A stretch of 46,312 bases of DNA. Source: Thalassavirus gary. Lineage: Duplodnaviria > Heunggongvirae > Uroviricota > Caudoviricetes > Demerecviridae. Under the pieces are notes generated by a model, which did no database searches, had not been told where the DNA came from, and was given only the letters and a program-made list of their open reading frames with translations. Within the stretch, counting starts at the first letter, position 1. Each line of letters opens with the position of its first letter. Positions 1-10,850 of the stretch are shown here, in pieces. The stretch lies in IMG/VR virus record IMGVR_UViG_2974784677_000001. One strand, written 5' to 3'. The position numbers and the translations under genes are program-made.

Positions 1-12
1 CCATATATCGCA

Positions 13-233
13 TTCGCACCTAGATTTCGCACCCACCCCAATCCTGGCCATGCCTTGCTGCACGCAGCTGGACTCGGCCAAATTTTTGGAGCAATCGGAT
101 TCGCACCTGCAGGCGCCTGACCAAATAGCAGAAAATATAAAACTCAAAATGCATCGAATCGGCACCTAATTTATAATAGAATTTGCACCTACTGCCATGT
201 AATCATCGAATTTGCACTTGTCGGATTTGCACC
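13..233 (+). repeat. Seven dispersed copies of a TTYGCACC-like motif
   Basis: ttcgcacc 13-20, 26-33, 100-107; tcggcacc 159-166; tttgcacc 182-189, 226-233; tttgcact 211-218. Confidence 0.8.
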
Positions 234-259
234 CAGGCGCAGGAGGGACGTCCGGAGCT

Positions 260-347
260 CTATACGTCTATCCTTCCAGACTTCTATCCATCCAGACTTC
301 TAGCCATCTATCCTTCTATCCATCTAGCCGTCTAGACTTCTATCCTT
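260..347 (+). repeat. Degenerate 8-bp tandem array, 11 units
   Basis: ctatacgt ctatcctt ccagactt ctatccat ccagactt ctagccat ctatcctt ctatccat ctagccgt ctagactt ctatcctt, in exact 8-bp phase. Confidence 0.9.
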
Positions 348-359
348 CCGTATGCCCTA

Positions 360-375
360 CTGTAAAGGTTTACAG
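360..375. promoter_or_regulatory. LexA (SOS) box
   Basis: (ta)CTGT-AAAGGTTT-ACAG(ta) matches CTGT-N8-ACAG with canonical TA flanks. Confidence 0.7.
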
Positions 376-422
376 TACACCATTCTGTATAAAATTTTAC
401 CTTATGCCGTCCCGTATAAAAT

Positions 423-439
423 ATGGCACGATTCTTGCT
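423..439 (+). promoter_or_regulatory. sigma54 (RpoN) -24/-12 site
   Basis: aTGGCACG-attc-TTGCT; GG at 425-426 and GC at 437-438, separated by the canonical 10 nt. Confidence 0.6.
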
Positions 440-449
440 TATTAAAAAG

Positions 450-520
450 TTATCCACAACTGTATATTTATACATCGCTCTAAAACGCTCTATACAGAGT
501 TATCCACAACCTTATCCACC
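450..520 (+). promoter_or_regulatory. DnaA box cluster (left)
   Basis: TTATCCACA 450-458 and 500-508; TTATCCACC 512-520. Confidence 0.75.
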
Positions 521-545
521 GCAAAACCACTGTATATTTATACAG
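460..545. promoter_or_regulatory. Two LexA boxes
   Basis: CTGTATATTTATACAG 530-545 (perfect); CTGTATATTTATACAT 460-475 (one mismatch). Confidence 0.7.
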
Positions 546-740
546 GGCTTATGTCGCAGCATATTATTTCGAATACCGTTTCTAGCGCCTCCTAGCCTCA
601 CCACGACGTTTTAAGCCTTTTAGGGTACTATGGCCTACCCTATCCTACACGCCCATAGCGCCATGTAACACTAGCACGACTTTTACGTGCTGCCGGAGCG
701 GCGCGGTTTTACAGAATGGTGTACGGTAAACGGGTAAACA

Positions 741-768
741 AAACGGCGTCACTTTTCGGTGACGCTGT
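741..768 (-). terminator. Rho-independent terminator of the minus-strand pre-early operon
   Basis: Minus strand acagcgtcac-cgaaaa-gtgacgccgt followed by tttgttt, just after the 775 stop. Confidence 0.7.
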
Positions 769-774
769 AACAGT

Positions 775-1011
775 TTAATTTATTTGGTATTTGGCACGCT
801 CTAGGATCGAAATTGCGTCATCAATTAGATTGCTTGCCGCTTCAGTATCGTGCTCAAACGGGGCGGTATTACTGACAGTTAAGTAAATAAACTGTATGGC
901 CGCCGCACTATCAGGATCTTGCTCTAGAGTAGGATCACTCGCTCTAGCTTCATGTAGCAGCCATTTAACATGCTCGAAAAAATCCGAATCGACCAAATAT
1001 TGTTTATCCAT
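775..1011 (-). CDS. Pre-early hypothetical protein, acidic (78 aa)
   Basis: ATG ORF, last in a co-oriented cluster and followed by a terminator; 15 D/E vs 5 K/R. Confidence 0.75.
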   Translation of the reverse strand: MDKQYLVDSDFFEHVKWLLHEARASDPTLEQDPDSAAAIQFIYLTVSNTAPFEHDTEAASNLIDDAISILERAKYQIN

Positions 1012-1065
1012 TTTACACCACCCAAATCATTGCAATTAAAAGTACGATGTCCAGTAAATCAATTT

Positions 1066-1290
1066 TCATCGTGGTTCAAAGTCCCGTACTATTTCTAGAA
1101 ATTCACGGATTGTAATTCCATCACACCGAATTTCCTCATCGGAGTGTTGAGTATGACGTACTGTAAACTTGTCATACTCTACTTGCTCGATTTCATCTAC
1201 TAGCACACCTTTATAGTATAAACCACGTTGTTTGTGTGCCTCATACACTTGTTGCAAAAATGATACTAACATTTCACTAGGTCTTAACAT
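1066..1290 (-). CDS. Pre-early hypothetical protein (74 aa)
   Basis: RBS GGAGG upstream of ATG; co-oriented cluster. Confidence 0.75.
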   Translation of the reverse strand: MLRPSEMLVSFLQQVYEAHKQRGLYYKGVLVDEIEQVEYDKFTVRHTQHSDEEIRCDGITIREFLEIVRDFEPR

Positions 1291-1292
1291 GG

Positions 1293-1469
1293 TTAAACCT
1301 CCACCGGATAAAGTTTGTTTACTACAGCGTACGCCGTACCGTTTTCATCTTGCCACACTTGACCAAATTCATTAGTTTCTACATGCTTCAAAATCATAGG
1401 CACAATATGACCATTATGCATAATATTGCACATCCAAGTTTGTCCTAGTGTCATAACGTGAACGCTCAT
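1293..1469 (-). CDS. Pre-early hypothetical protein (58 aa, MSVHVMTLGQTWMCN...YPVEV); not in ORF track
   Basis: Translated by hand; fills the gap, ATGA overlap with the upstream ORF, and its 3' end carries the RBS of the next gene. Confidence 0.65.
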   Translation of the reverse strand: MSVHVMTLGQTWMCNIMHNGHIVPMILKHVETNEFGQVWQDENGTAYAVVNKLYPVEV

Positions 1470-1573
1470 TTTAAAATCACCAAAATTTTATTATAGTCCA
1501 TACGTACCGTAAAAAACGGTTTGCCGTTTCTAGCAGCCCATAGCAAAGCAGTTGCATAGTTATCAAATTCCAT
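1466..1573 (-). CDS. Pre-early hypothetical peptide (35 aa, MEFDNYATALLWAARNGKPFFTVRMDYNKILVILK); not in ORF track
   Basis: Starts 1 nt after the upstream stop (TAG T ATG) and ends in an ATGA overlap with the next ORF. Confidence 0.55.
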   Translation of the reverse strand: MEFDNYATALLWAARNGKPFFTVRMDYNKILVILK

Positions 1574-1574
1574 A

Positions 1575-1805
1575 CTAATAATGTGTCGGTAGGTTAAGTC
1601 TTAACAATCCATTGCGAACACCAAAACATAGGTGCTTAGATTCTACAGGTTCAAGCTCGCAAGGGTAGCACATAAAAGACTCACCGCAAAAAACATACGG
1701 GGATACTACAGAAATATAACTCCCGTCAATGGCTACAATAACACCACATTTGCCGTTAGTATCTTTGCAGCGACCTTTTACTTTTACAATTTGGTTAACT
1801 TTCAT
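1575..1805 (-). CDS. Pre-early hypothetical protein (76 aa)
   Basis: ATG ORF in the co-oriented cluster; N-terminus is SH3/KOW-like in pattern (VKVKG...GVIVAIDG). Confidence 0.7.
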   Translation of the reverse strand: MKVNQIVKVKGRCKDTNGKCGVIVAIDGSYISVVSPYVFCGESFMCYPCELEPVESKHLCFGVRNGLLRLNLPTHY

Positions 1806-1876
1806 TTAAGGGTACTCCGTAGGGTAAAGGGTACGTATGCCGTACCCTAAAGCCGTTAACACAATGATTACACTAA

Positions 1877-2179
1877 TCATGCCAATTCTCGAATCATATC
1901 ACGTAATAAATCGGCGTCCGCATCATTGCAGTATATAAACCCGTAACCGTTACCACCGTCATGTGGGGCAACTTCTTTTAATACTTGAGATACAGTATGG
2001 TGTTTTGCTAGTATGCCTGTTTTTATACAGTGTAGCGTTCGCTTCCCTAGCAAGTCACCAGATTTTTGTAGTGTGATTTCTCCATCACTCCATAACTGGT
2101 ACACCATACCGTTTCGTGCTGCTAGGTCGTCGTTGTTAGCAGATACAAATTTTTCTGTTAATTCTGTAATAGTAATCAT
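1877..2179 (-). CDS. Pre-early hypothetical protein (100 aa)
   Basis: RBS GAGG; co-oriented cluster. Confidence 0.75.
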   Translation of the reverse strand: MITITELTEKFVSANNDDLAARNGMVYQLWSDGEITLQKSGDLLGKRTLHCIKTGILAKHHTVSQVLKEVAPHDGGNGYGFIYCNDADADLLRDMIRELA

Positions 2180-2194
2180 CGCTAATACCTCGTA

Positions 2195-2515
2195 TTATAT
2201 CCCTAGCCAGCCGTTTTCGAATCGTGCGCCCTCAAAAATAGCCCACCATGTTAACAAGTCAGCCCTAGCGTATTGGTACAGCATACCGCCATTAGTCGCG
2301 CCATTAGCAAAAGCTATAGCATACGCTAAAACTTTAGCTTTTAACACGTCCTCGACATCATTAAAAAGGCTGATATTTCGAGTAATTTCGAAATGGTATT
2401 CTTTGTTGCTCAAAAAGCATTGAGCCATTTCTAGACGTTTACTCATTGGAGTATCTGCGTTCAGTTGGTACGCTGTACTGATTTTTGGTTGTTCTAAAAA
2501 TTGTTGGTATGACAT
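2195..2515 (-). CDS. Pre-early hypothetical protein (106 aa)
   Basis: RBS GAGG, with a promoter directly upstream. Confidence 0.75.
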   Translation of the reverse strand: MSYQQFLEQPKISTAYQLNADTPMSKRLEMAQCFLSNKEYHFEITRNISLFNDVEDVLKAKVLAYAIAFANGATNGGMLYQYARADLLTWWAIFEGARFENGWLGI

Positions 2516-2558
2516 TTTGTTGCCCTCGCTTAAAGCGGTAATTATTGTCTAGGTCTTA

Positions 2559-2587
2559 ATAATACCAAAACCTAGACATGGTGTAAA
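2559..2587 (-). promoter_or_regulatory. sigma70-type pre-early promoter
   Basis: TTTACA-17 bp-TATTAT on the minus strand; -10 flanked by inverted repeat tgtctagg/cctagaca. Confidence 0.65.
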
Positions 2588-2605
2588 GTGATTTAGGTCA
2601 CACTT

Positions 2606-2914
2606 TTAAACGGGGTTATAATCAATTTGATCGATACCAATTTCACGCCATACCATAGACTTATCATCATAGCCCCAACCGTCTAGAAGCTCAAGAATTG
2701 CGCTACGTTCACGGCGGTCATATAAACCCAAGATATGCATCTCATCGTTATAGATAGTTACACCATAGGCAGGATGAACAACCATAATGATAGATTCATC
2801 ATTATCAAGATACCATAGAGTTTCACTAGGATCTTCAACTATATTATTTAGCGGTAGGGCGTCCAGTATAGTATCTAGACTGAGTAACAAAGTTTTTTCT
2901 TTTAGGTTAAACAT
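2606..2914 (-). CDS. Pre-early hypothetical protein, acidic (102 aa)
   Basis: Start moved to ATG 2914 behind GGAGG; 20 D/E vs 7 K/R. Confidence 0.75.
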   Translation of the reverse strand: MFNLKEKTLLLSLDTILDALPLNNIVEDPSETLWYLDNDESIIMVVHPAYGVTIYNDEMHILGLYDRRERSAILELLDGWGYDDKSMVWREIGIDQIDYNPV

Positions 2915-3203
2915 TTTTAACAACCTCCGCAACAACTACTTTCACGGGTACTACTTGAGTGCTACTATCAATATAGTGGTCGTGGCGTACGTCACCATAT
3001 TCCGGTAACACCATATTAGTTGTTTTGGGTACTAGTGGCACGAAAAAGATGTCGTTGTCATCTTCACTATATACACACACCGCAACTAGAACATTTTTAA
3101 TATCTAGTTCATCGCCATACCTAACAAAAGCATCCCCAAATTTTAACGTATCCGCTTGGATGCACTCATGCTCACTTTTATGATTCTCAACAGTTACAAA
3201 CAT
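2907..3203 (-). CDS. Pre-early hypothetical protein (98 aa)
   Basis: RBS GGAG; overlaps the downstream start. Confidence 0.75.
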   Translation of the reverse strand: MFVTVENHKSEHECIQADTLKFGDAFVRYGDELDIKNVLVAVCVYSEDDNDIFFVPLVPKTTNMVLPEYGDVRHDHYIDSSTQVVPVKVVVAEVVKNV

Positions 3204-3265
3204 TTAACATCTCCAGTAAGGGTAAAAACCAACCAATAGGGCTAAACAAAACGCTACACTGCAAA

Positions 3266-3388
3266 CTAGTTCAAGCATGTTATACCTACCTTATTAAGTA
3301 GTTTATCAAGTGTCGCAGCACTAGCAACAAATTCGCCAGTTTCAATACTGACACACCACCAAATAACATCAAAAAACATACGGTACAT
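3266..3388 (-). CDS. Pre-early hypothetical peptide (40 aa, MYRMFFDVIWWCVSIETGEFVASAATLDKLLNKVGITCLN); not in ORF track
   Basis: GGAGGG RBS and a promoter immediately upstream; translated by hand. Confidence 0.6.
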   Translation of the reverse strand: MYRMFFDVIWWCVSIETGEFVASAATLDKLLNKVGITCLN

Positions 3389-3417
3389 TGTTTCGCCCTC
3401 CTATTGGGTAGGACTTA

Positions 3418-3446
3418 ATCATACTAAATCTAGGCCAAAAGTCTAA
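3418..3446 (-). promoter_or_regulatory. sigma70-type pre-early promoter
   Basis: TTAGAC-17 bp-TATGAT on the minus strand; shares extended sequence with the 2559-2587 promoter. Confidence 0.6.
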
Positions 3447-3551
3447 TAACATTTAGCTATATCCACCAGCAAAACGATGCCCAGGCGTTATAAGCGCTGT
3501 AAGCCGTTATAAGAGGTTCTAGCAAAAAGCCTTGTTTTAGTATGCCTTACT

Positions 3552-3718
3552 TGTGTATAACCACTCACAACGGATTCTAGAGCCTAGGAACGCCATTCTA
3601 TATCGGATAAGCTGTGATTTAGTGTAGATAAGATCCGTTTTCCTGTTAGTATGTTGTGGATAACCAGTAGATATACAGTATTATTAGAACTTGCTAATGT
3701 GCATAAGTCTGTGTATAA
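3552..3718 (-). promoter_or_regulatory. DnaA box cluster (right, opposite orientation)
   Basis: TGTGTATAA 3552-3560, TGTGGATAA 3655-3663, TGTGTATAA 3710-3718; all match TTATNCACA on the minus strand. Confidence 0.75.
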
Positions 3719-3925
3719 AAAGTTGGCACGAAAATTTCCTAATATATAAATCAAGAAATATTTTGCTATATAATATAACTAGAAATTCTTTGACAAGCTC
3801 AAAAATCTATGAATCGAGCTATGCACAAAAGTGACTAAATATGCAGTTTTTTAACTAAAAGTGCATAAACGATTTAAATGAACTCGACTACAGGGTAGGG
3901 CTAAAATTGCTTAGAATCGCATACA

Positions 3926-3963
3926 GAGCGTTTTAGAGCTATGTATAAATATACAGTGGTTTT
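3926..3963. repeat. Inverted copy of the 459-490 and 523-544 elements, containing a LexA-like box (3941-3956)
   Basis: 3926-3957 is the reverse complement of 459-490 at 31/32; 3942-3963 is the reverse complement of 523-544 at 22/22. Confidence 0.9.
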
Positions 3964-3967
3964 CAAG

Positions 3968-3984
3968 TTGGCATGGTTATTGCT
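3968..3984 (+). promoter_or_regulatory. sigma54 (RpoN) -24/-12 site
   Basis: TTGGCATG-gtta-TTGCT with GG-N10-GC spacing; a near-match TTGGCACG-aaaa-TTTC lies at 3723-3738. Confidence 0.55.
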
Positions 3985-4169
3985 ACGTGCGCGTTTCTAT
4001 TTATATTTATAGCCCTAGGTTATATTAGTAATTACTATATTAGAAACGCCTCGATTAATAAAATTTATCGTCACGATAAAAACGTTTTGTTAGACTATAA
4101 TCCTAGATTCGCTATTATATACCCATACCGCAACAACACGGCGGGACAGAAAAGCTGAAAAGCTTCTCG

Positions 4170-4218
4170 AAAAAAGTTGAAAAAAGTTGTTGACACACTA
4201 AGCGGCTTTTGAGATACT
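4170..4218 (+). promoter_or_regulatory. Strong pre-early promoter of the A2-A1-dmp operon
   Basis: A-tract UP element, TTGACA 4190-4195, 17 bp, TG-n-GATACT 4213-4218. Confidence 0.75.
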
Positions 4219-4224
4219 AACAAC

Positions 4225-4249
4225 GTCCCCAAGGGGGCACGCTCTTTAA
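4225..4249 (+). promoter_or_regulatory. Hairpin (boxB-like) followed by boxA antitermination element
   Basis: gtccc-caag-ggggc hairpin 4225-4238, then CGCTCTTTAA 4240-4249 (cf. rrn TGCTCTTTAA, lambda CGCTCTTA). Confidence 0.6.
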
Positions 4250-4424
4250 GGCAGTAAGACGGAATGCAGTGATGCATCGAATGCCTAGACAATTTGGAAA
4301 ATGCGATTTGACCCATTGCTTACTTGATTGGATTGTTTGAGTATTAACCGTTAGCCGATTCATAGCGAGTCGGTTAACTGAGAAATACTCTCATTTAAAA
4401 CTAACCTATTAAGAGGAAAATATC

Positions 4425-4862
4425 ATGGCTAAGAAATGGACAGAAGAAATGGCGGAAAAAGCAGCAACTCTTTACACTGCTAAACTTGAAGCTGAAGGTA
4501 AAGAAGCGGCAGCACATACCGATTTTCTTGATACCATTGCGGTAGAAGTCGAGGCTGTATCAGGTAAAGCGGTTCGCTCAAAACTAACTGTTATGGGTGT
4601 TTACCAAAAACCGGACGCCGTTGCAAGTGTAGCTAAAACGAACACTGTACGTAAAGAACACTATGTACGTGCTCTAGCTCATACGCTTGGTTTAGATGCT
4701 GATGATTTAGACAGCTTGAAAAACGCTAAAATGTCAGCCCTAGCCGATTTAGCTCAAGCGATTGGTATCACTGACATTCAAGCAGCAAGCGCAAAAAATT
4801 ACGAACCGGATTTAGAAAAGGTTTGTGAAGCTTTCGAAAATGCCCGTGGTCTAGACCTATAA
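4425..4862 (+). CDS. A2: A2 protein (pre-early DNA-binding protein, second-step transfer)
   Basis: KWTEE..., VRSKLT...YQK and RKEHYVRALA motifs resemble T5 A2; synteny with A1 and dmp; GAGG RBS. Confidence 0.85.
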   Translation: MAKKWTEEMAEKAATLYTAKLEAEGKEAAAHTDFLDTIAVEVEAVSGKAVRSKLTVMGVYQKPDAVASVAKTNTVRKEHYVRALAHTLGLDADDLDSLKNAKMSALADLAQAIGITDIQAASAKNYEPDLEKVCEAFENARGLDL

Positions 4863-4875
4863 CCAACGCCTAAAC

Positions 4876-4937
4876 AATTAGGGGGAATTATCCCCCTAAT
4901 TTACAGTGTAAATTTAAACAAGTTTACACTGTAAATT
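4876..4937 (+). terminator. Two adjacent perfect hairpins after A2 (terminator or processing sites)
   Basis: aattaggggg-aattat-ccccctaatt 4876-4901; 15-bp stem aatttacagtgtaaa / tttacactgtaaatt 4898-4937. Confidence 0.6.
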
Positions 4938-4961
4938 AACCCATAAATGGAGAGTAAAACA

Positions 4962-5315
4962 ATGGCTAAGATTAGTATTAAATCACTGTTAAACAACGGC
5001 AGCGCAAAACAAGAACTACAAAACAAAGTTGAAAAACTAACAGGTGTTAGTTTTAATTGGCGTCCAAATAGCCGTATTTCTGGGCGTACACTTCAAGCCG
5101 TCATTGATTTAGCGGAGTATAGAACACCGCTATTCAATGAAAGTGAAATTAATTCACTACGCTATGAAAACAAAGCAGCAAAAACAGTAGTTATGGGGAT
5201 GTTGTGTGAAGCTCTAGAAATCAGCGACCTAGAACAACGTAAAGCAATTATGACGATTGCGAGTTGTTCAAGTGCAGATGATTTTGTTACTAAAGTTCTA
5301 TTCATGTTTGTATAA
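4962..5315 (+). CDS. Pre-early hypothetical protein (117 aa)
   Basis: Start moved to ATG 4962 behind GGAGAG; lies between A2 and A1. Confidence 0.8.
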   Translation: MAKISIKSLLNNGSAKQELQNKVEKLTGVSFNWRPNSRISGRTLQAVIDLAEYRTPLFNESEINSLRYENKAAKTVVMGMLCEALEISDLEQRKAIMTIASCSSADDFVTKVLFMFV

Positions 5316-5389
5316 CGGGACAAAATATTCTAGGGCATTCTAGCGAGTGCCTTAGTTAATATTTTTAACCGCAAAAGCGAGTATATACA

Positions 5390-7054
5390 ATGAAACAAGT
5401 TAACGAAGTAATCACAGCAAACGCAACGGCAATCATTAAAGCTGCAAAAGGTCTTAATTTTTGGGGCAAACGCCTAGACTCAAAACGCCGTGAAATTGCT
5501 ATTGCAATTCGTGATTCTCTTAAAATCACTATCCATTCTAGCGAGCTTATTGATTGGCTAGACGAAAACAAGCCAGTCAAACCAGTAAAAGCAAAAAGTC
5601 ACTCGCAGCAAGCAAAAGCTGACATTGAACCTACTTTTGCAGGTTCTATCAATGGTCGAGATTTTGACAACCTAGACGACGGTTTGTATATCTTGACGGC
5701 AGGACAGAACAACACAAAACCGCATCCAGTCTTAAATACTCTATTAGCAATTGCTAATGAGCGTGATGCAGAGTTCGGAGTTATGCCGATTAAATATACA
5801 ACCGTGCTACAGGGACGTGAACGCAAAGAGCCTAAATATCACGCAGATATTAAAAAGCATATTCTAGAGCCTGTAGATACTTGGTTAGGTGGTGAAGGTA
5901 ACGTGCTACTAGCTAACAGTGCTCAGATTCTCCCAACTGCAAAACAGCCAATTAACGCAGCCGAGCGACTAAATACAGGTGAATCATTAACTATTGTTGC
6001 TAGTCCTCGTCGCCAGACTAAAACCCTACCACGTCAAAAGAATGGGGCTTTCCGTTGGGTTTATACAACAGGTGTTTGTACTCAAATGCATTACACTGAC
6101 AGCCGAGCAGGGGCAGAAGCAGAAGCAGAACACTGTTTTGGTGGTGTGTTAATTGAAGTTCGAGACGGGCTAATCAATCACCGCCGTTTAGTAGCTGACG
6201 AAAACGGTGTTATTATTGATAACGGTTCGGTGTACTTCCCTGACGGCACTATCAAAGCTTACAATGATGTTTTTGAGCAAAAGCCTGTTATCGTGCTAGG
6301 TGATTTGCATTGTGAGAAAATGTGCGAAGACTCATTTAACAGAGCATTACGCCAGATTCACAACGAAAACCCGTCATTGGTAGTTGTTCATGATGCGCTT
6401 GATTTTATGAGCCGTAACCACCACAACCGCGAGGACTGGACATTCTTATACCAAATGCAAGACCGTGCAGTAATCGACGATTTAACCGATGTAATCAATC
6501 ACCTAAACCAGATTGCAGAATACGCGCCCGTTTTCATTGTTGAATCAAACCATGATTTAGCTCTAGATTCTTGGGTACGTGATAATAAATTCGATGTACG
6601 CAAAGACCCTAAAAACGCCCGTACATATCACGCTCTAATGCTTGCTTACATTGAAGCGATGGACAACGGCGAATTAAACGACCTTGCAAAAATGGATTTA
6701 GCATTCAGAGCACTAGCTGACAAGCTACCAGAGTTAAGCGATGATATCGAGTTCGGTAAAATCGACTCACAACGTCTAGTATTTGGTTATGATGTTTCTA
6801 TGCATGGTCATGTTGGTACAGGTGGAGCGCGTGGCTCAGCAGTATCATTCAAAAAGATGCGCATTAAAACTGTAACAGGTCACACACATTCACCTTTTGA
6901 AGATAACAATAATATTGTTGTTGGTGTAACTGGCTCTATGGAGATGGGTTATAACAAAGGTGGTACAACTTGGGACAGAGCAAACGCAGTTATTTACCCT
7001 AACTCAACTCACCAACTACTACCAACCTACCTAATCGGTGAAGCTCAATACTAA
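5390..7054 (+). CDS. A1: A1 protein (metallophosphoesterase-fold DNase; host DNA degradation and second-step transfer)
   Basis: 554 aa; GDLH, VHD, ESNHD, MHGH, GHTHSP motifs; N-terminal LNFWGKRL as in T5 A1; synteny. Confidence 0.92.
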   Translation: MKQVNEVITANATAIIKAAKGLNFWGKRLDSKRREIAIAIRDSLKITIHSSELIDWLDENKPVKPVKAKSHSQQAKADIEPTFAGSINGRDFDNLDDGLYILTAGQNNTKPHPVLNTLLAIANERDAEFGVMPIKYTTVLQGRERKEPKYHADIKKHILEPVDTWLGGEGNVLLANSAQILPTAKQPINAAERLNTGESLTIVASPRRQTKTLPRQKNGAFRWVYTTGVCTQMHYTDSRAGAEAEAEHCFGGVLIEVRDGLINHRRLVADENGVIIDNGSVYFPDGTIKAYNDVFEQKPVIVLGDLHCEKMCEDSFNRALRQIHNENPSLVVVHDALDFMSRNHHNREDWTFLYQMQDRAVIDDLTDVINHLNQIAEYAPVFIVESNHDLALDSWVRDNKFDVRKDPKNARTYHALMLAYIEAMDNGELNDLAKMDLAFRALADKLPELSDDIEFGKIDSQRLVFGYDVSMHGHVGTGGARGSAVSFKKMRIKTVTGHTHSPFEDNNNIVVGVTGSMEMGYNKGGTTWDRANAVIYPNSTHQLLPTYLIGEAQY

Positions 7055-7066
7055 TTAGTGTTTTAT

Positions 7067-7092
7067 TAATAGGCTATCAATTGATAGCCTAT
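7067..7092. terminator. Palindromic hairpin after A1
   Basis: aataggctatc-aatt-gatagcctatt. Confidence 0.55.
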
Positions 7093-7119
7093 TGCTGAAC
7101 CCATTAAGAGAGAAAAGCC

Positions 7120-7341
7120 ATGAAAAGCACACAAATTAAACTCGCAAATGTACTAGCTAGCTACTACGGCATGAAAACACAGAACCCTGCCAAAGCTAAA
7201 AAACATCTAGTACAGTTTATGAAAAAGCATGAACTAACTATGCTAGACGTACAGAATGCAATGCCTTTTGCCCGTGTCATTATTCAAAAACGTACTGATG
7301 CATTTATGAACGGCAGCACTACAGCACGATTGAACGATTAA
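7120..7341 (+). CDS. Pre-early hypothetical protein, basic (73 aa)
   Basis: AGAGAG RBS; lies between A1 and dmp. Confidence 0.75.
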   Translation: MKSTQIKLANVLASYYGMKTQNPAKAKKHLVQFMKKHELTMLDVQNAMPFARVIIQKRTDAFMNGSTTARLND

Positions 7342-7426
7342 CATTCACTAGCACATAAACCACGTGGCGGGCGCAAATGTGATGCCCGTCACACTTTTAC
7401 TTAACCGCATAAGCGAGTATTTACCA

Positions 7427-8065
7427 ATGAAAAAAGCATACATATTTGACCTAGACGGCACAACAATTGATTCTTTTCACCGTGTTGAGCCATGCCTAGA
7501 TTCACAGGGTAACTTGAATCTAGATAAATATATCAAAGAGGCTTGCACGCCTGAAAAGGTAGCCAATGACAAACTGTTGCCACTTGCCGGATACATGCAA
7601 CAACTAATCAAACAGGGTGAACTTGTTATCATCCTAACAGCTCGTTACATGCTTAATCATGATTATGTTTACCTACGCCGTAATCAATTGAGAACGCCTA
7701 TCATTTGCAGCCGTGACCAATTGAGCCGTGTATTTGGTGAAGGTAATGCAGCCCGTATCAGTGCAATGTCAGATGCACCATACAAACAACAATGGTTTGA
7801 ACATCTATTTGCTAGTATGCCACAAGTTACAGAATGGTGTTTCTTTGACGACCACGACGGTATATTAGAAATGGCTAATTCATTAAAAGGTGTAACAGCT
7901 ACCGACGCTAAATTGATGAATCAACTGTTAGAAATGCAATGGGCTGACATTTACCGCCAAGGCGAACAAGACACCGCCGAGTTGATACAAGACCTAATTG
8001 TTGAATGTTCACATCAAGACGTGATTATCAAACCGGAGTGGATTGATGAGCTTTTAGCTGAATAA
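7427..8065 (+). CDS. dmp: Deoxynucleoside-5'-monophosphatase (HAD family)
   Basis: FDLDGTTIDSFHRV and FFDDH HAD motifs; last gene of the terminal repeat as in T5; start moved to ATG 7427. Confidence 0.9.
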   Translation: MKKAYIFDLDGTTIDSFHRVEPCLDSQGNLNLDKYIKEACTPEKVANDKLLPLAGYMQQLIKQGELVIILTARYMLNHDYVYLRRNQLRTPIICSRDQLSRVFGEGNAARISAMSDAPYKQQWFEHLFASMPQVTEWCFFDDHDGILEMANSLKGVTATDAKLMNQLLEMQWADIYRQGEQDTAELIQDLIVECSHQDVIIKPEWIDELLAE

Positions 8066-8140: not shown

Positions 8141-8197
8141 ACGGTGGGGTCTACACCCCCTCCCACGTAACTACTTTGGTTTTTTCGAAAAACCATT

Positions 8198-8315: not shown

Positions 8316-10260
8316 ATGCCGTACCCAATATATAGAAACCTAACCGTACCTCAGGTGTCTTGTACGTTACGTCCCTCTCGCCAAGTTTATTATAATATGT
8401 TGTCTTGCCAGAATACTCAGCACACTGTAGGGCAGCATTAGTAAGTTTATACCACCCTACCAATTCTAGCTCATTGCGCACCCAATTTACCCGTATCTTA
8501 TATTGTATTCTTACAGCCTGCATCTTATTACCAGTACTAGAGAAATACCACCAAGACCTATCCGAGCTTGTTTTTGATACATCTCGCATTGTGCTGAATC
8601 CTATATCAGATACAACCGCTTCCTTATCAGGATGATCCTTACTAAATATCATGTATTGTAAGTTTGACCAGCCGGAATATCCATCAATACCTACATTCAT
8701 TTTAGACGTTTTACCAGCAATCGTGCTACTCGCCTCCCCCTTCAAGTATGGTGAGCTAACATGCACTGATAAATAGCTCTTATTAGTACTGCCTGGTGGT
8801 AGCTTTATTCTTTGTTTCACCACTGTTTTATAGTAATTCCCACATTGGTCAGGGTTCAGAACACGTCTCCAATCTGATGGCCCGAAGTCTATTACCTCTT
8901 TCTTGAATGAAGTACCTTGTTTTAATTGTGCGAAGGTATTGGTTTCAGCTGGAAATACCGCCGTAATAGCCGAATCACCGCCAAGTACAAAAGGTGTATA
9001 CTTTCTAGCCTTTGATGCTATTAAATATTCACCTTTACTTCCTTTATATTTAATCTCATCCGCCGAGAAGTCTAGTGATACGCCAGTCCCAAGAAGCGCT
9101 GACGGGGAGTGCACTAGTAGTATAGTATCAATGTTATACCAGCCTGTACCCTCATTAACACTCCAGTTACCATTGCTACTCTTAAAAAATCTACAGTAAG
9201 GGAATGGGTAGTCTGCTAGTTGTGCCAACGTCAAACCCTTTACTAGCCTGTCAAAAAACGGATACTTGACTTTATATTTATGACTAGAAATTGTACTATC
9301 TAGTAAATCTTCATTTGGAGCAGGATCCGTTATGAACATTCCGTTTTTCATAGCTAAATCCCCTACTACCATATCTTCACGAGATATGCGTATACCATCA
9401 CTTACATCAGGCTTCACATGTTCTAGTTTGTTGCTAGAATTATATTTTACATTAAATATATAAATAATTAATTTGAAGTTACTATCTGATGGGTTAGTAG
9501 ATGAGTAAGTTAGAGTAGTTGGAGCTGATGCTGTAGGTCTAATAATACGCATCCTAGATGATGTAGTACCATTAGCGAACAGTGCTCTATTTATTTTGTT
9601 TTCCTTAGTGAAACTAGCTGATGTAGCTCTACTAGCTGATGCAGACACATTTGGAGACTGAATTACTCTTTTATAGTTCTTAGTTTTCGGTGCTAAACCA
9701 GATATGCTCCAGTTATTTCTATAGTAACTTTTACTAGTAGGGTAGTCTGTTATAAATGAATCACTTTGGATACGCACTGCTTGATCCACCGTTTCGTCAG
9801 CATTAGCCATATCATGCATATCTATAGGTGCCCAACCACTGGAAATACCACCGTAAGGGTGTCCTCCTCCCATAGAACCTTGAAAATTACCTATAAATAT
9901 ATCTGCCGAAGTAGGAGACCAGTCACTAGAATATACACCTATAGGTCTATGCTCTACGTAGTTAGGGTGGTATGATACGTTTGAGCCACACATTAGGTAT
10001 CCTTGGTTCATGTAGTTCCATACCTCTTGTGGTATAACCGGTTCATAGTAGTGGTAATATCTAGTACCCGATTGTCTAGCTTCTACGTGCTTAAATTGAG
10101 TTACCTCTATAACCTTTGATATTGCTAAGTATGGTATATCTGAGTGAAATAGCGTTGAGGCTATAGGTGCCCCATGTAATTGAGAAATAGACTCACTGCC
10201 ACTAGTTACATGTAATAGTGGTCTATTATCTGAGGGCTTTCTGCCCATAAAAAGTGCCAT
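8314..10260 (-). CDS. pb5: Receptor-binding protein, pb5/Oad-like (648 aa)
   Basis: N-terminus MALFMGR...LFHSDIPYL resembles T5 pb5 (...IFHSDMPF); divergent from terS as in T5; AGGAGG RBS. Confidence 0.8.
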   Translation of the reverse strand: MALFMGRKPSDNRPLLHVTSGSESISQLHGAPIASTLFHSDIPYLAISKVIEVTQFKHVEARQSGTRYYHYYEPVIPQEVWNYMNQGYLMCGSNVSYHPNYVEHRPIGVYSSDWSPTSADIFIGNFQGSMGGGHPYGGISSGWAPIDMHDMANADETVDQAVRIQSDSFITDYPTSKSYYRNNWSISGLAPKTKNYKRVIQSPNVSASASRATSASFTKENKINRALFANGTTSSRMRIIRPTASAPTTLTYSSTNPSDSNFKLIIYIFNVKYNSSNKLEHVKPDVSDGIRISREDMVVGDLAMKNGMFITDPAPNEDLLDSTISSHKYKVKYPFFDRLVKGLTLAQLADYPFPYCRFFKSSNGNWSVNEGTGWYNIDTILLVHSPSALLGTGVSLDFSADEIKYKGSKGEYLIASKARKYTPFVLGGDSAITAVFPAETNTFAQLKQGTSFKKEVIDFGPSDWRRVLNPDQCGNYYKTVVKQRIKLPPGSTNKSYLSVHVSSPYLKGEASSTIAGKTSKMNVGIDGYSGWSNLQYMIFSKDHPDKEAVVSDIGFSTMRDVSKTSSDRSWWYFSSTGNKMQAVRIQYKIRVNWVRNELELVGWYKLTNAALQCAEYSGKTTYYNKLGERDVTYKTPEVRLGFYILGTA

Positions 10261-10282
10261 AAATAATCCTCCTGTTTTGTAT

Positions 10283-10311
10283 ATTATATCTATAATTCAA
10301 TGCTATGTCAA
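10283..10311 (-). promoter_or_regulatory. Consensus promoter for the RBP gene
   Basis: TTGACA-17 bp-TATAAT, perfect. Confidence 0.85.
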
Positions 10312-10331
10312 ATTCGATTTTTAAATTTTTG

Positions 10332-10360
10332 TTGACATTCAGGTTTGAAGATGTTATATT
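10332..10360 (+). promoter_or_regulatory. Promoter for the terS/late operon
   Basis: TTGACA-17 bp-TATATT with extended -10 TG. Confidence 0.8.
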
Positions 10361-10379
10361 AGTTGGAAAGGAGAGGAGT

Positions 10380-10850
10380 ATGACAGATAAACTACTACCA
10401 GATATTATACAACCGGAAGGACTACAGGTCGCAGAGACGTACCTGATGCTAGGTGGGGACTCTAAGAGAACTGCTACTGAGCTAAATCTTCCTGTGGCTG
10501 AAGTGGAAGCCCAACTAAAGAAAAATGAAGTACGTACTTATATTAATAGACAATTTCATGAGCAAGGATTCAGAAATAAATTTAGAATCTTCGGTGTTAT
10601 GGATCAACTATTAAATATGAAGCTTGAAGAAATCCAAGATACTCAAGTAGGTACTAGCGTAGATATTGTAGATCTAATCAAAGTAATGCATAAGATGAAG
10701 ATGGATGAAATGAAGATGGAAGTGGAGATGCTTAAAGCACAGGGAGCTACTGCTGGTCCTACAAATCAAACTAACATCCAAAACAATATTAACATGCCTG
10801 GCGGTGACGATGAGAACTATATGGCTCTCATAAATAAACTGGTGGGATAA
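10380..10850 (+). CDS. terS: Terminase small subunit
   Basis: Start moved to ATG 10380 behind AGGAG; PEGLQVAETYL and HTH-like N-terminus; TAATG-coupled to terL. Confidence 0.8.
   Translation: MTDKLLPDIIQPEGLQVAETYLMLGGDSKRTATELNLPVAEVEAQLKKNEVRTYINRQFHEQGFRNKFRIFGVMDQLLNMKLEEIQDTQVGTSVDIVDLIKVMHKMKMDEMKMEVEMLKAQGATAGPTNQTNIQNNINMPGGDDENYMALINKLVG

Follow-up and report, generated by a model that had tools for sequence, protein, structure and literature searches.

Inverted cassettes of DnaA boxes have been described in T5 (Wang 2005, annotation in AY587007; Davison 2020, bioRxiv 10.1101/866236; Heusterspreute 1987). Repeat Region 3 of T5, with the structure IRD'-spacer-IRC', is a candidate injection stop signal, and Regions 1/2 have the structure IRC-spacer-IRD. 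Binding of DnaA as a brake or knot on the entering DNA has already been proposed for T5-like coliphages (Davison 2020). Double boxes 2–3 bp apart are the preferred target of DnaA in vivo, and same-strand pairs with a 3-bp spacing predict its occupancy there (Stringer, Fitzgerald & Wade 2024, PMC11317965). The paired inverted cassettes, the double DnaA boxes and the idea of a DnaA brake are already known for T5-like coliphages; the first-pass annotation of the present DNA, which put forward such cassettes and a DnaA brake, was not new in these respects. It described the mechanism of the injection pause as unresolved, and the literature still reports it so (PMC10644984, PMC13250531). Our literature search found no earlier description of a conserved LexA palindrome in these cassettes, nor of arrays of sigma-54 motifs in the terminal repeats of Vibrio phages.

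Two cassettes in the terminal repeat of a Vibrio T5-like phage

The window (the whole stretch of 46,312 nt that was analysed) presents one terminal repeat of a Thalassavirus-like Vibrio T5-like phage, starting at about position 1 and probably ending at about 8170. The deposited strand runs in the reverse of the T5 convention, and the synteny is that of T5: dmp-A1-A2, a cassette, the small genes, a terminator, a second cassette and the D repeats (Table 1). The A2 product belongs to phrog_1725. Two non-coding blocks, A (355–735) and B (3390–4424), together make up 3.1% of the window. Judged by their homology and position, they are the Ermolyevavirinae (Vibrio-phage) counterparts of T5 Repeat Region 3 and Regions 1/2, respectively. 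Block A occupies the distal end of the first-step DNA, the site to which the injection stop signal of T5 has been mapped, and is the last part of that DNA to enter, contrary to the earlier placement of the blocks at the leading end. The core of cassette A is found at 93–95% of the repeat length, as compared with 92–93% in T5, just within the 7.9% shear point.

Table 1. Features of the terminal repeat, in window coordinates
Feature	Position	Strand	Remarks
Six direct repeats, core TCGGATTYGCAC	7–235	+	Homologous to 'direct repeat D' of T5
Tandem array of about 12 phased 8-bp pyrimidine-rich units	259–357	+	Directly 5′ of sigma-54 motif no. 1
25-nt inverted repeat enclosing cassette A	368–731 (arms 368–392, 707–731)	.	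Thalassavirus lineage only
Sigma-54 −24/−12 motif no. 1 (TGGCACG-N4-TTGCT)	416–439	+	Invariant ATAAAATA upstream
DnaA box 1 (TTATCCACA)	450–458	+	9/9 positions invariant in 11 phages
LexA-type palindrome, one mismatch (ACAT end)	460–475	+	Exact inverted partner of 3941–3956
Double DnaA box of block A	500–520	+	Geometry identical in T5
Consensus LexA palindrome CTGTATATTTATACAG	530–545	+	9 bp from double DnaA box
Intrinsic terminator of leftward small-gene operon	746–765	−	
Small-gene pre-early operon, about ten genes without known function	775–3388	−	Cassette on either side
Three single DnaA-type boxes (3552, 3623, 3655)	3552–3663	−	3655 exact
Double DnaA box TTATACACA-GAC-TTATGCACA	3698–3718	−	GAC spacer common to T5
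Degenerate sigma-54-like site (TGGCACG-N4-TTTCC)	3724–3739	+	Kept in that form in distant Vibrio phages
39-nt inverted repeat, 92% complementary (arms 456–494, 3922–3960)	3922–3960	+	This arm holds palindrome 3941–3956
Sigma-54 motif no. 2	3969–3984	+	12 bp downstream of palindrome; directed to A2-A1-dmp
Strong sigma-70-type promoter (TTGACA-17-GATACT)	4190–4218	+	Before A2
A2 (4425–4862), unknown gene (4947–5315), A1 (5390–7054), small ORF, dmp-position gene (7364–8065)	4425–8065	+	

The direct repeats mark the inner boundary of the terminal repeat. Their core also occurs in T5 (9 copies, 9672–10409), Sugarland and AAS21; the array straddles the repeat boundary in T5 and VF16 and lies just outside it in Sugarland. 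In the alignment, the adjacent 8-bp array recurs in Ceto, VF16, pVp-1, VPG01, PVo5 and JSF10. The locus thus resembles T5 in its terminal-repeat location and flanking genes, its mirrored pair of cassettes, its double DnaA boxes with a 3-bp spacing (block B sharing even the GAC spacer), an identical palindrome of 16 nt some 10 bp away from the double box, and the D-repeat core at the boundary. It differs in the length of the inverted repeat (39 nt here, 131 bp in T5), in the absence of the 52-bp spacer that separates the two double boxes in T5, in an extra palindrome copy in block A, in having the phased array where T5 has the DRC/palindrome E-J (Fur-box-like) segment, and in its sigma-54 motifs, which T5 lacks.

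A double DnaA box and a LexA palindrome form the conserved core

Enrichment, resampling and alignments showed that the motif clusters noted in the two blocks are real, non-random and conserved in relatives. The blocks contain six of the seven matches of the window to the consensus DnaA box (TTWTNCACA; binomial P 6e-9), both of its exact sigma-54 motifs, all three of its AT-type LexA palindromes and both of its double DnaA boxes. None of 20,000 first-order Markov resamples, composition-matched to the blocks, attained the counts observed for DnaA boxes, sigma-54 motifs or AT-type palindromes; these counts are not fully independent because the motif copies are partly related through duplication. 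Genome-wide, exact DnaA 9-mers number 2–4 per repeat versus 0–2 in the unique DNA (about 110 kb), AT-type palindromes are confined to the repeats, and the motifs are kept in PG07, VspSw_1 and D239 despite their rearranged order. Fur boxes, also named in the first-pass annotation, were found in neither block.

The sequence TTATCCACA occurs exactly at 450 and 500 (+ strand) and 3655 (− strand), and with one mismatch at 512 (+) and at 3552, 3623, 3698 and 3710 (−). The opposite orientations previously noted, + in block A and − in block B, were confirmed. The count of three boxes per block holds for block A; block B has five, including its double box. These double boxes resemble the chromosomal loci of the same kind (oriC, datA, DARS2 and DnaA-regulon promoters) in consisting of same-strand consensus 9-mers 3 bp apart; unlike those, they are situated on the first-injected DNA of a lytic phage.

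Exact matches to CTGT-N8-ACAG were found at 360–375 and 530–545, and single-mismatch versions at 460–475 (ACAT end) and 3941–3956 (ATGT start). The site at 360–375 has a non-AT spacer, reads CTGC in Pontus, Thalassa and River4, and is probably fortuitous. LexA boxes had been claimed for each block; they are present in both, with a single LexA-type palindrome in block B and the non-conserved 360–375 to be discounted in block A. The shared inverted repeat of 31/32 matches was recovered within the 39-nt repeat. The 16-mer CTGTATATTTATACAG also occurs in T5, at 6137–6152 and 9332–9347, and the module composed of a double DnaA box, 9–10 bp and CTGTATAWWTATACAG is collinear in the window, T5, Sugarland and AAS21. 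The LexA consensus is matched at 15 of 16 positions here and at 19 of 20 in T5 palindrome D. The palindrome, whose centre alternates between AAA and TTT among phages, is kept from the T5, Klebsiella and Pantoea phages through all Vibrio clades, and at least one copy is present in 36 of 37 T5-like loci (A1 at least 90% identical). The conserved core consists of a double DnaA box with a consensus LexA palindrome some 10 bp away; distally, the TCGGATTYGCAC repeats follow at the repeat boundary.

River4 has lost both block A palindromes and PVo5 one of them, that at 460–475 being missing from both phages; LexA therefore cannot be essential at the stop-side cassette. The palindromes share with the SOS boxes of Gammaproteobacteria and of LexA-using temperate phages the form CTGT-N8-ACAG with an AT-rich spacer. 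They depart from known LexA operators in that the phage is strictly lytic, in that the site does not overlie a sigma-70 promoter but adjoins DnaA boxes and sigma-54 motifs, and in that River4 does without the block A copies. A search for a phage-encoded LexA-type domain found none.

In the Vibrio phages, an array of sigma-54 −24/−12 motifs is added to the DnaA/LexA core. TGGCAY-N5-TTGCW is matched exactly at 424–439 and 3969–3984, both on the + strand, in agreement with the claim of one such site in each block; transcription from motif no. 1 is predicted to start near position 449. Among 11 phages, TGGCA and TTGC are invariant (9/9 positions), whereas no position of the 6-nt spacer is (0/6). 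The repeats of Vibrio T5-like phages contain 2–7 such motifs; outside the repeat, a single match was found across nine Vibrio phage genomes, and reversed-pattern controls gave none. A palindrome, a 12-bp gap and a sigma-54 motif are similarly combined in phage D239 (A1 38.6% identical), two sigma-54 motifs of which overlap and face one another. Since the motifs are absent from the enterobacterial relatives T5, Sugarland and AAS21, they cannot be part of a universal stop mechanism. Their likeness to RpoN promoters includes −24 GG and −12 GC at the exact spacing, the extended consensus TGGCACG-r-N3-TTGCW, and invariant cores with a free spacer. They differ from such promoters in that neither an activator nor an upstream activator site is known here, and in forming arrays of 2–7 within 3–4 kb of a phage terminal repeat, some of them antisense or face-to-face.

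A possible host-factor complex at the pause, and its alternatives

Mirror-image cis cassettes flank the small-gene operon, and we infer that host proteins bind them and have a role in the injection pause. Specifically, we propose, with a confidence that falls a little short of even, that a host-factor complex at the cassettes helps to hold the first-step DNA until A1/A2 act. Host DnaA, which would sit as dimers on the double boxes, could load together with LexA and sigma-54 RNA polymerase as the DNA enters; all three would already be in the cell before infection and would cover roughly 415–547 of block A. This block is the last part in, and its distance from the leading dmp-proximal end is about 7.6 kb. 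The nucleoprotein complex thus formed, which may be bridged to block B and membrane-tethered via DnaA, may help to keep the DNA halted at the close of first-step transfer. In the Vibrio lineage, where sigma-54 sites adjoin LexA and DnaA sites, the same complex may also gate transcription. The recruitment of pre-existing host proteins, as suggested in the first-pass annotation, is a reasonable logic for DNA that acts before any phage protein is made; the interpretation given there is partly supported overall. Three host factors, DnaA, LexA and sigma-54, become candidates in the old unsolved T5-type pause. The proposal draws on the T5-like position and synteny of the cassettes, on the non-random occurrence and footprint-like conservation of the motifs, and on signs that host rather than phage factors are involved: no LexA-type or sigma-54 activator domain was found in the phages, T5 palindrome D fits the LexA consensus closely, and DnaA favours double boxes with this spacing. 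Against it count the palindrome losses in River4 and PVo5, the lack of sigma-54 motifs in T5, Sugarland and AAS21, the need of sigma-54 promoters for an activator, the face-to-face motifs of D239, and the short inverted repeat without the 52-bp spacing of T5. Nor is it obvious how proteins on internalised DNA would stop DNA that is still external.

The same sites could instead constitute a transcription-control module, in which a host enhancer-binding protein fires the sigma-54 motifs as working promoters and the adjacent LexA and DnaA sites serve as operators, so that pre-early or antisense transcription tracks the host state (SOS, replication status, sigma-54 signal) and the injection arrest has another cause. 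Relative to promoter 1, DnaA box 1 and the first palindrome would cover about +1 to +26; promoter 2 has a palindrome 12 bp upstream, and this fixed 12-bp coupling is common to the Thalassavirus group and the distant D239. The conservation pattern is as expected for true −24/−12 promoters, the motifs fit the extended consensus TGGCACG-r, and block B, a divergent promoter region, has in VF16, pVp-1, PG07 and phi3 a sigma-54 motif directed into the small-gene operon and followed downstream by DnaA boxes. We nevertheless consider this module rather unlikely. Sigma-54 promoters require an activator; our search identified no activator domain encoded by the phages, nor was any upstream activator site recognised. 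Promoter 1 points antisense to the small-gene operon, into its 3′ end, neither a conserved ORF nor an Rfam RNA lies downstream of it, and the face-to-face overlap in D239 is odd for working promoters. Furthermore, the LexA/DnaA module occurs without sigma-54 in enterobacterial relatives, and that of T5 does not overlie an annotated promoter.

Recognition by a phage protein, such as dimeric A2 with A1 or a virion protein, for transfer restart, cleavage or circularisation would make the likeness to host operators a coincidence or mimicry. A2 is a conserved DNA-binding dimer needed in second-step transfer. The one-mismatch palindrome (ACAT/ATGT) is conserved in most Vibrio phages and in both inverted copies, which fits a constraint other than the best LexA affinity, and the degenerate site at 3724 is conserved despite departing from the −12 GC. 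However, three unrelated motifs each match a separate host consensus in diagnostic details (the double-box spacing, 15–19 of 16–20 LexA positions, and the exact −24/−12 spacing with a free spacer), the AAA/TTT flip of the palindrome centre is what binding by a symmetric dimer, LexA being one, would lead one to expect, and the arrest happens without phage protein synthesis; we regard this explanation as improbable. Slightly less probable still is a DnaA-dependent replication origin, or recombination or packaging at the terminal repeats. The five co-oriented boxes of block B (36% GC overall) adjoin the AT-rich stretch 3720–3900, the oppositely oriented arrays are reminiscent of oriC halves, and the D repeats lie on the repeat boundary. 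T5 origins, however, were mapped close to the middle of the genome, and the replication genes are in second-step DNA (Davison 2020); at an origin, the LexA and sigma-54 sites would serve no obvious purpose, the boundary element is the D-repeat array rather than the LexA/DnaA cassettes, and cassette B is 4 kb away from the boundary.

The proposal that the sites act as a sponge, titrating DnaA and LexA off host targets and so reprogramming the host, appears very improbable to us. Each genome carries the predicted high-affinity sites twice, and replication would add to their number, but they are few per incoming genome, and T5-type phages degrade host DNA within minutes, which, if these phages do as T5 does, makes derepression of host genes pointless. 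Titration also leaves the fixed position, polarity and mirror arrangement of the cassettes unexplained.

Terminal repeat and order of entry

Bases 1–4400 of the window matched, by megablast, the genomes of T5-like phages of Vibrio (Pontus, Brizo, Luma, Achelous, Thalassa and others), which belong to the Ermolyevavirinae within the Demerecviridae and infect V. harveyi and V. campbellii. In related phages whose termini are defined (VF16, phi 3, Sugarland and T5), some 100 bp separate the physical left end from dmp, and the counterpart of the non-coding block A is found towards the repeat's inner end; the window therefore presents the terminal repeat in the reverse of the T5 convention. The repeat spans 1–7427 in VF16, as determined by PhageTerm, and 1–7769 in phi 3. 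As the 8600-bp repeat of Pontus ends about 110 bp past dmp, the window's repeat should end near position 8170. By homology with T5, dmp would enter the cell first, the non-coding block B midway, and block A last, about 7.6 kb behind the leading end. In this order neither block stands at the front of the incoming DNA.

Close to the inner boundary of the repeat, block A comes after the terminator that ends the small-gene operon, and block B is the divergent promoter region adjoining A2; the features are listed in the table below. Ten proteins encoded in the repeat had no Pfam match, and PHROGs assigned them only to families of unknown function, apart from A2, a DNA-binding protein. An Rfam scan of 1–4500 yielded no credible RNA family, and a search of sequencing runs for this phage returned no RNA run among its matches, two DNA runs being found with a small share. 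A strong sigma-70 promoter (4190–4218) with a long structured leader precedes A2, within 4170–4424. In Pontus, a 789-bp ORF is inserted in block B (3336–4124), in parallel with T5, where an HNH gene comes between Repeat Regions 1 and 2, and the site seems to tolerate insertions.

Features of the terminal repeat in the window, and arrays of the TCGGATTYGCAC core in the window and in related phages
Feature	Genome	Position	Strand
Block A, non-coding	window	355–735	
Ten small genes	window	775–3388	minus
Block B, non-coding	window	3390–4424	
A2	window	4425–4862	
Gene of no assigned function	window	between A2 and A1	
A1	window	5390–7054	
Small ORF	window	between A1 and the dmp-position gene	
dmp-position gene	window	7364–8065	
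TCGGATTYGCAC core array	window	7–235	
TCGGATTYGCAC core array	T5	9672–10409	
TCGGATTYGCAC core array	Sugarland	1329–1885	
TCGGATTYGCAC core array	AAS21	1383–1952	

Cassettes shared with T5 and their motifs

The T5 record is annotated with dmp-A1-A2, then Repeat Regions 1/2 containing the inverted repeats C and D, small ORFs and terminators, and finally Repeat Region 3, in which D′ and C′ are accompanied by palindromes and by nine D direct repeats spanning the boundary of the repeat. The window has the same architecture. When the two are set in one orientation, the double DnaA box, a gap of 9–10 bp and the palindrome CTGTATAWWTATACAG are collinear between them. The paired boxes are separated by 3 bp in the window (500–520 and 3698–3718), as in T5, and the pair in block B also has the GAC spacer of T5. 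As in T5, palindrome D lies beside the double box, the D direct repeats lie distally at the boundary, and the cassette occurs in two inverted copies. The opposite orientation of the DnaA boxes in the two blocks, reported by the first-pass annotation, was confirmed (plus in A, minus in B), and wherever both cassettes of a T5-like locus have a double box, the polarity is the same. The inverted repeat that it saw the blocks share is also present, with a length of 39 nt and 92% complementarity, as compared with 131 bp in T5. T5 has two double boxes per cassette with a constant 52-bp spacer, eight boxes in all, whereas block A of the window has one single and one double box 41 bp apart, and block B has one double and three single boxes. 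The motif types that had been assigned to the blocks are present, but block B contains five DnaA-type boxes instead of the three originally counted, along with only one LexA-type palindrome.

Inverted cassettes have been described in 25 T5-like coliphages by Davison (bioRxiv 10.1101/866236), with eight DnaA boxes paired 3 bp apart and a cassette located just inside the 7.9% shear point, and membrane-bound DnaA was proposed there to halt or knot the incoming DNA. At its core, the candidate system is therefore a structure already known, for which a hypothesis has been published; the earlier interpretation, that host DNA-binding proteins are recruited onto the entering DNA, is supported in part, and part of it (the Davison cassettes and the DnaA brake) was already in print. 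In vivo, DnaA occupies double boxes 2–3 bp apart (PMC11317965).

Blocks A and B account for 3.1% of the window, yet they contain six of its seven TTWTNCACA sites, both exact sigma-54 motifs (TGGCAY-N5-TTGCW), all three AT-type palindromes and both double DnaA boxes. All the motifs were present at the positions where they had originally been reported, and their suspected excess over a composition-matched background was borne out, as none of 20,000 resamples attained the observed DnaA, sigma-54 or palindrome counts. Genome-wide in the relatives, exact TTATCCACA occurs 2–4 times per terminal repeat versus 0–2 times in the roughly 110 kb of unique sequence, and the AT-type palindrome is confined to the terminal repeats. 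Among nine Vibrio phage genomes, only one exact sigma-54 motif lies outside the repeat, and the reversed-pattern controls gave zero matches. The clustering of the motifs is real and far beyond chance.

The LexA-type palindrome, CTGT-N8-ACAG with an AT-rich spacer, occurs exactly at 530–545 and with one mismatch each at 460–475 and 3941–3956. Another match to the pattern, 360–375, had been reported as a LexA box but lacks conservation, reading CTGC in the closest relatives. Palindrome D of T5 agrees with the LexA consensus at 19 of 20 positions, and window 530–545 is the same 16-mer. In enterobacterial T5-like loci with A1 at least 90% identical, CTGT-N8-ACAG is found within 13–21 kb only as these palindromes, usually one per cassette, and at their centre AAA alternates with TTT, as would be expected of a symmetric dimer site. 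The palindromes are also found in the Klebsiella phage Sugarland, the Pantoea phage AAS21 and the distant Vibrio clade of D239 (A1 38.6% identical), and most Vibrio phages keep the one-mismatch form (ACAT/ATGT) as such in both inverted copies. A LexA-type domain (LexA DNA-binding domain, PF01726) was absent from the relatives searched. Davison 2020 names neither LexA, SOS, sigma nor Vibrio, and a LexA or SOS reading of the palindrome is mentioned neither there nor in the searchable literature, whose reach stops short of the older papers on the T5 repeats; a family-wide LexA site would be an addition beyond the accessible literature.

When cassette A was aligned across 11 phages from four genera, all nine positions of DnaA box 1 proved invariant, as did TGGCA and TTGC of the sigma-54 motif, while none of its six spacer columns did. 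Both block A palindromes are replaced in River4, where the sigma-54 motif and three perfect DnaA boxes are retained; PVo5 is without the first palindrome, and phi 3 and JSF10 are without the second box of the DnaA pair. Judged from these losses, the constrained elements of cassette A are therefore DnaA box 1, DnaA box 2 and the sigma-54 core, and LexA at cassette A is dispensable. Metagenomic contigs with A1 29–49% identical, from hosts not identified, had none of the motifs. A Rhizobium phage that has an A1-like gene does not share the terminal-repeat architecture of the T5 type, and thus provides no test of hosts with a differing LexA motif.

Sigma-54 motifs of the Vibrio lineage

The sigma-54 motifs have the −24 GG and −12 GC elements at fixed spacing, with conserved cores and a free spacer, as sigma-54 promoters do, and they fit the extended consensus TGGCACG-purine. 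The motif survives rearrangement of the cassette. A DnaA box lies directly upstream of it in PG07 and VspSw_1, and these two phages and D239 have 5–7 copies within 3–4 kb. The order of block B palindrome, 12 bp and sigma-54 motif is common to the Thalassavirus group and D239. No sigma-54 motif was found in T5, the other enterobacterial T5-like loci, Sugarland or AAS21; the array is specific to the Vibrio lineage. A composite of the sigma-54 motif and the DnaA box had 18 matches in IMG/VR, seven of which were known Vibrio T5-like phages, the remainder being about the number expected, by estimate, from chance. The sigma-54 activator domain PF00158 was not found in four relatives, nor was an upstream activator site recognised for the motifs, and a host-encoded activator is possible. 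A pyrimidine-rich 8-bp array in strict phase (259–357) immediately precedes sigma-54 motif 1, at the place expected of an activator site or of some structural element; several Vibrio genera have the array and T5 does not.

Two proposals concerning these motifs were discarded. A promoter swap, by which phi 3 and VF16 would have a sigma-70 promoter in place of sigma-54 motif 2 of the Thalassavirus group, was rejected because no more than 12 bp separates the TTGACN hexamer from TATGNT. For a host-promoter origin of the palindrome and sigma-54 composite, one genome per species was scanned for the palindrome, 10–14 nt and the sigma-54 motif; the single match, in a Desulfamplus MAG, is at the chance level.

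A degenerate sigma-54-like site at 3724 is conserved as well. The stretch AAAAGT-TGGCACGA-N3-TTTCCTA (window 3718–3742; about 6531–6556 in D239) is shared by distant Vibrio T5-like phages, and its −12 element deviates from TTGC; a factor other than sigma-54 may bind there. At 3055–3087 of D239, two exact copies of the sigma-54 motif overlap head to head, their −12 elements adjacent, and form a 33-bp near-palindrome, which is hard to reconcile with two working promoters. The conserved ACAT/ATGT palindrome, the conserved 3724 site and the facing motifs of D239 thus leave room for a constraint other than the best binding of host proteins.

Candidate roles of the cassettes and boundary elements

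How T5 injection stops and restarts has been a question since the 1960s, and is still called untested in papers of 2023–2026 (PMC10644984, PMC13250531). The candidate stop region has the same core, consisting of the double DnaA box, the consensus LexA site and the boundary repeats, across subfamilies that infect Escherichia, Klebsiella, Pantoea and Vibrio, and this shared core narrows the search to two named host proteins for which standard mutants exist. The sigma-54 array in the first-injected repeat, by which a strictly lytic phage would unexpectedly employ a sigma factor that depends on an activator, adds a third, lineage-specific handle through rpoN and enhancer-binding-protein mutants. 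New here are the extension to Vibrio phages, the putative family-wide LexA site and the Vibrio-specific sigma-54 array.

Sequence comparison establishes the homology of the cassettes to those of the T5 stop region and their matching position, and shows that selection has acted on three kinds of motif, which agree with the consensus sequences of host proteins in diagnostic details. We consider it plausible, while stopping short of calling it probable, that host factors assemble into a platform on the cassettes and contribute to the injection pause. DnaA, LexA and sigma-54 polymerase would be present in the cell before the naked DNA arrives; they would load on the cassettes, covering about 415–547 of block A, and the complex would form where first-step transfer ends. 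If such binding is true, a virulent phage would build a regulatory complex purely from host proteins on naked incoming DNA. The main rival, that the cassettes serve as sigma-54 promoters under regulation, with operators for LexA and DnaA, and sense the state of the host, the arrest being caused otherwise, seems to us somewhat unlikely; it and the platform of host factors are not mutually exclusive. An elaboration of the platform into a host-built checkpoint is unlikely: DnaA dimers, LexA and, in Vibrio, closed-complex sigma-54 polymerase on the last-entering cassette would hold the genome until A1-dependent attack on the host DNA led to SOS, LexA cleavage and remodelling, so that second-step transfer would be timed to host takeover. 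In Vibrio, remodelling might also proceed through activator-dependent sigma-54 transcription across the DnaA boxes.

Other explanations fit the evidence less well. That the motifs are sites for phage proteins such as A2 is distinctly unlikely, and a role as an origin or in end processing has a slim chance, since the DnaA-box cluster of block B adjoins an AT-rich stretch (3720–3900) but the T5 origins have been mapped elsewhere. A sponge for host proteins is very improbable. On Salmonella mutated in himA, himD or rpoN, the T5-like phage Aji_GE shows poor plating, with rpoN acting indirectly, via RpoS (PMC8744999). The IHF dependence of this lytic phage could relate to the repeat regions.

The repeats at the start of the window have the core of direct repeat D of T5, TCGGATTYGCAC. 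The D-repeat array straddles the inner terminal-repeat boundary in T5 and VF16 and lies just outside it in Sugarland; these repeats suggest a role in making or recognising the repeat boundary, that is, in packaging, and not in the pause. Fur boxes, which the first-pass annotation had wanted sought, were found in neither block, with up to 5 of 19 mismatches to the 19-bp consensus or up to 2 of 15 to the 7-1-7 form. In T5, the DRC repeats and palindromes G–I (9574–9640) are 1–2 mismatches off the 7-1-7 Fur-box consensus, and a nearly identical Fur-box-like segment occurs in VF16 (5312–5336) and is lacking in the window's phage. The motif GTATGMCNTAC recurs at 350–366, 1151–1167, 1835–1851 and about 3540–3550 of the window, in both coding and non-coding parts of the repeat.
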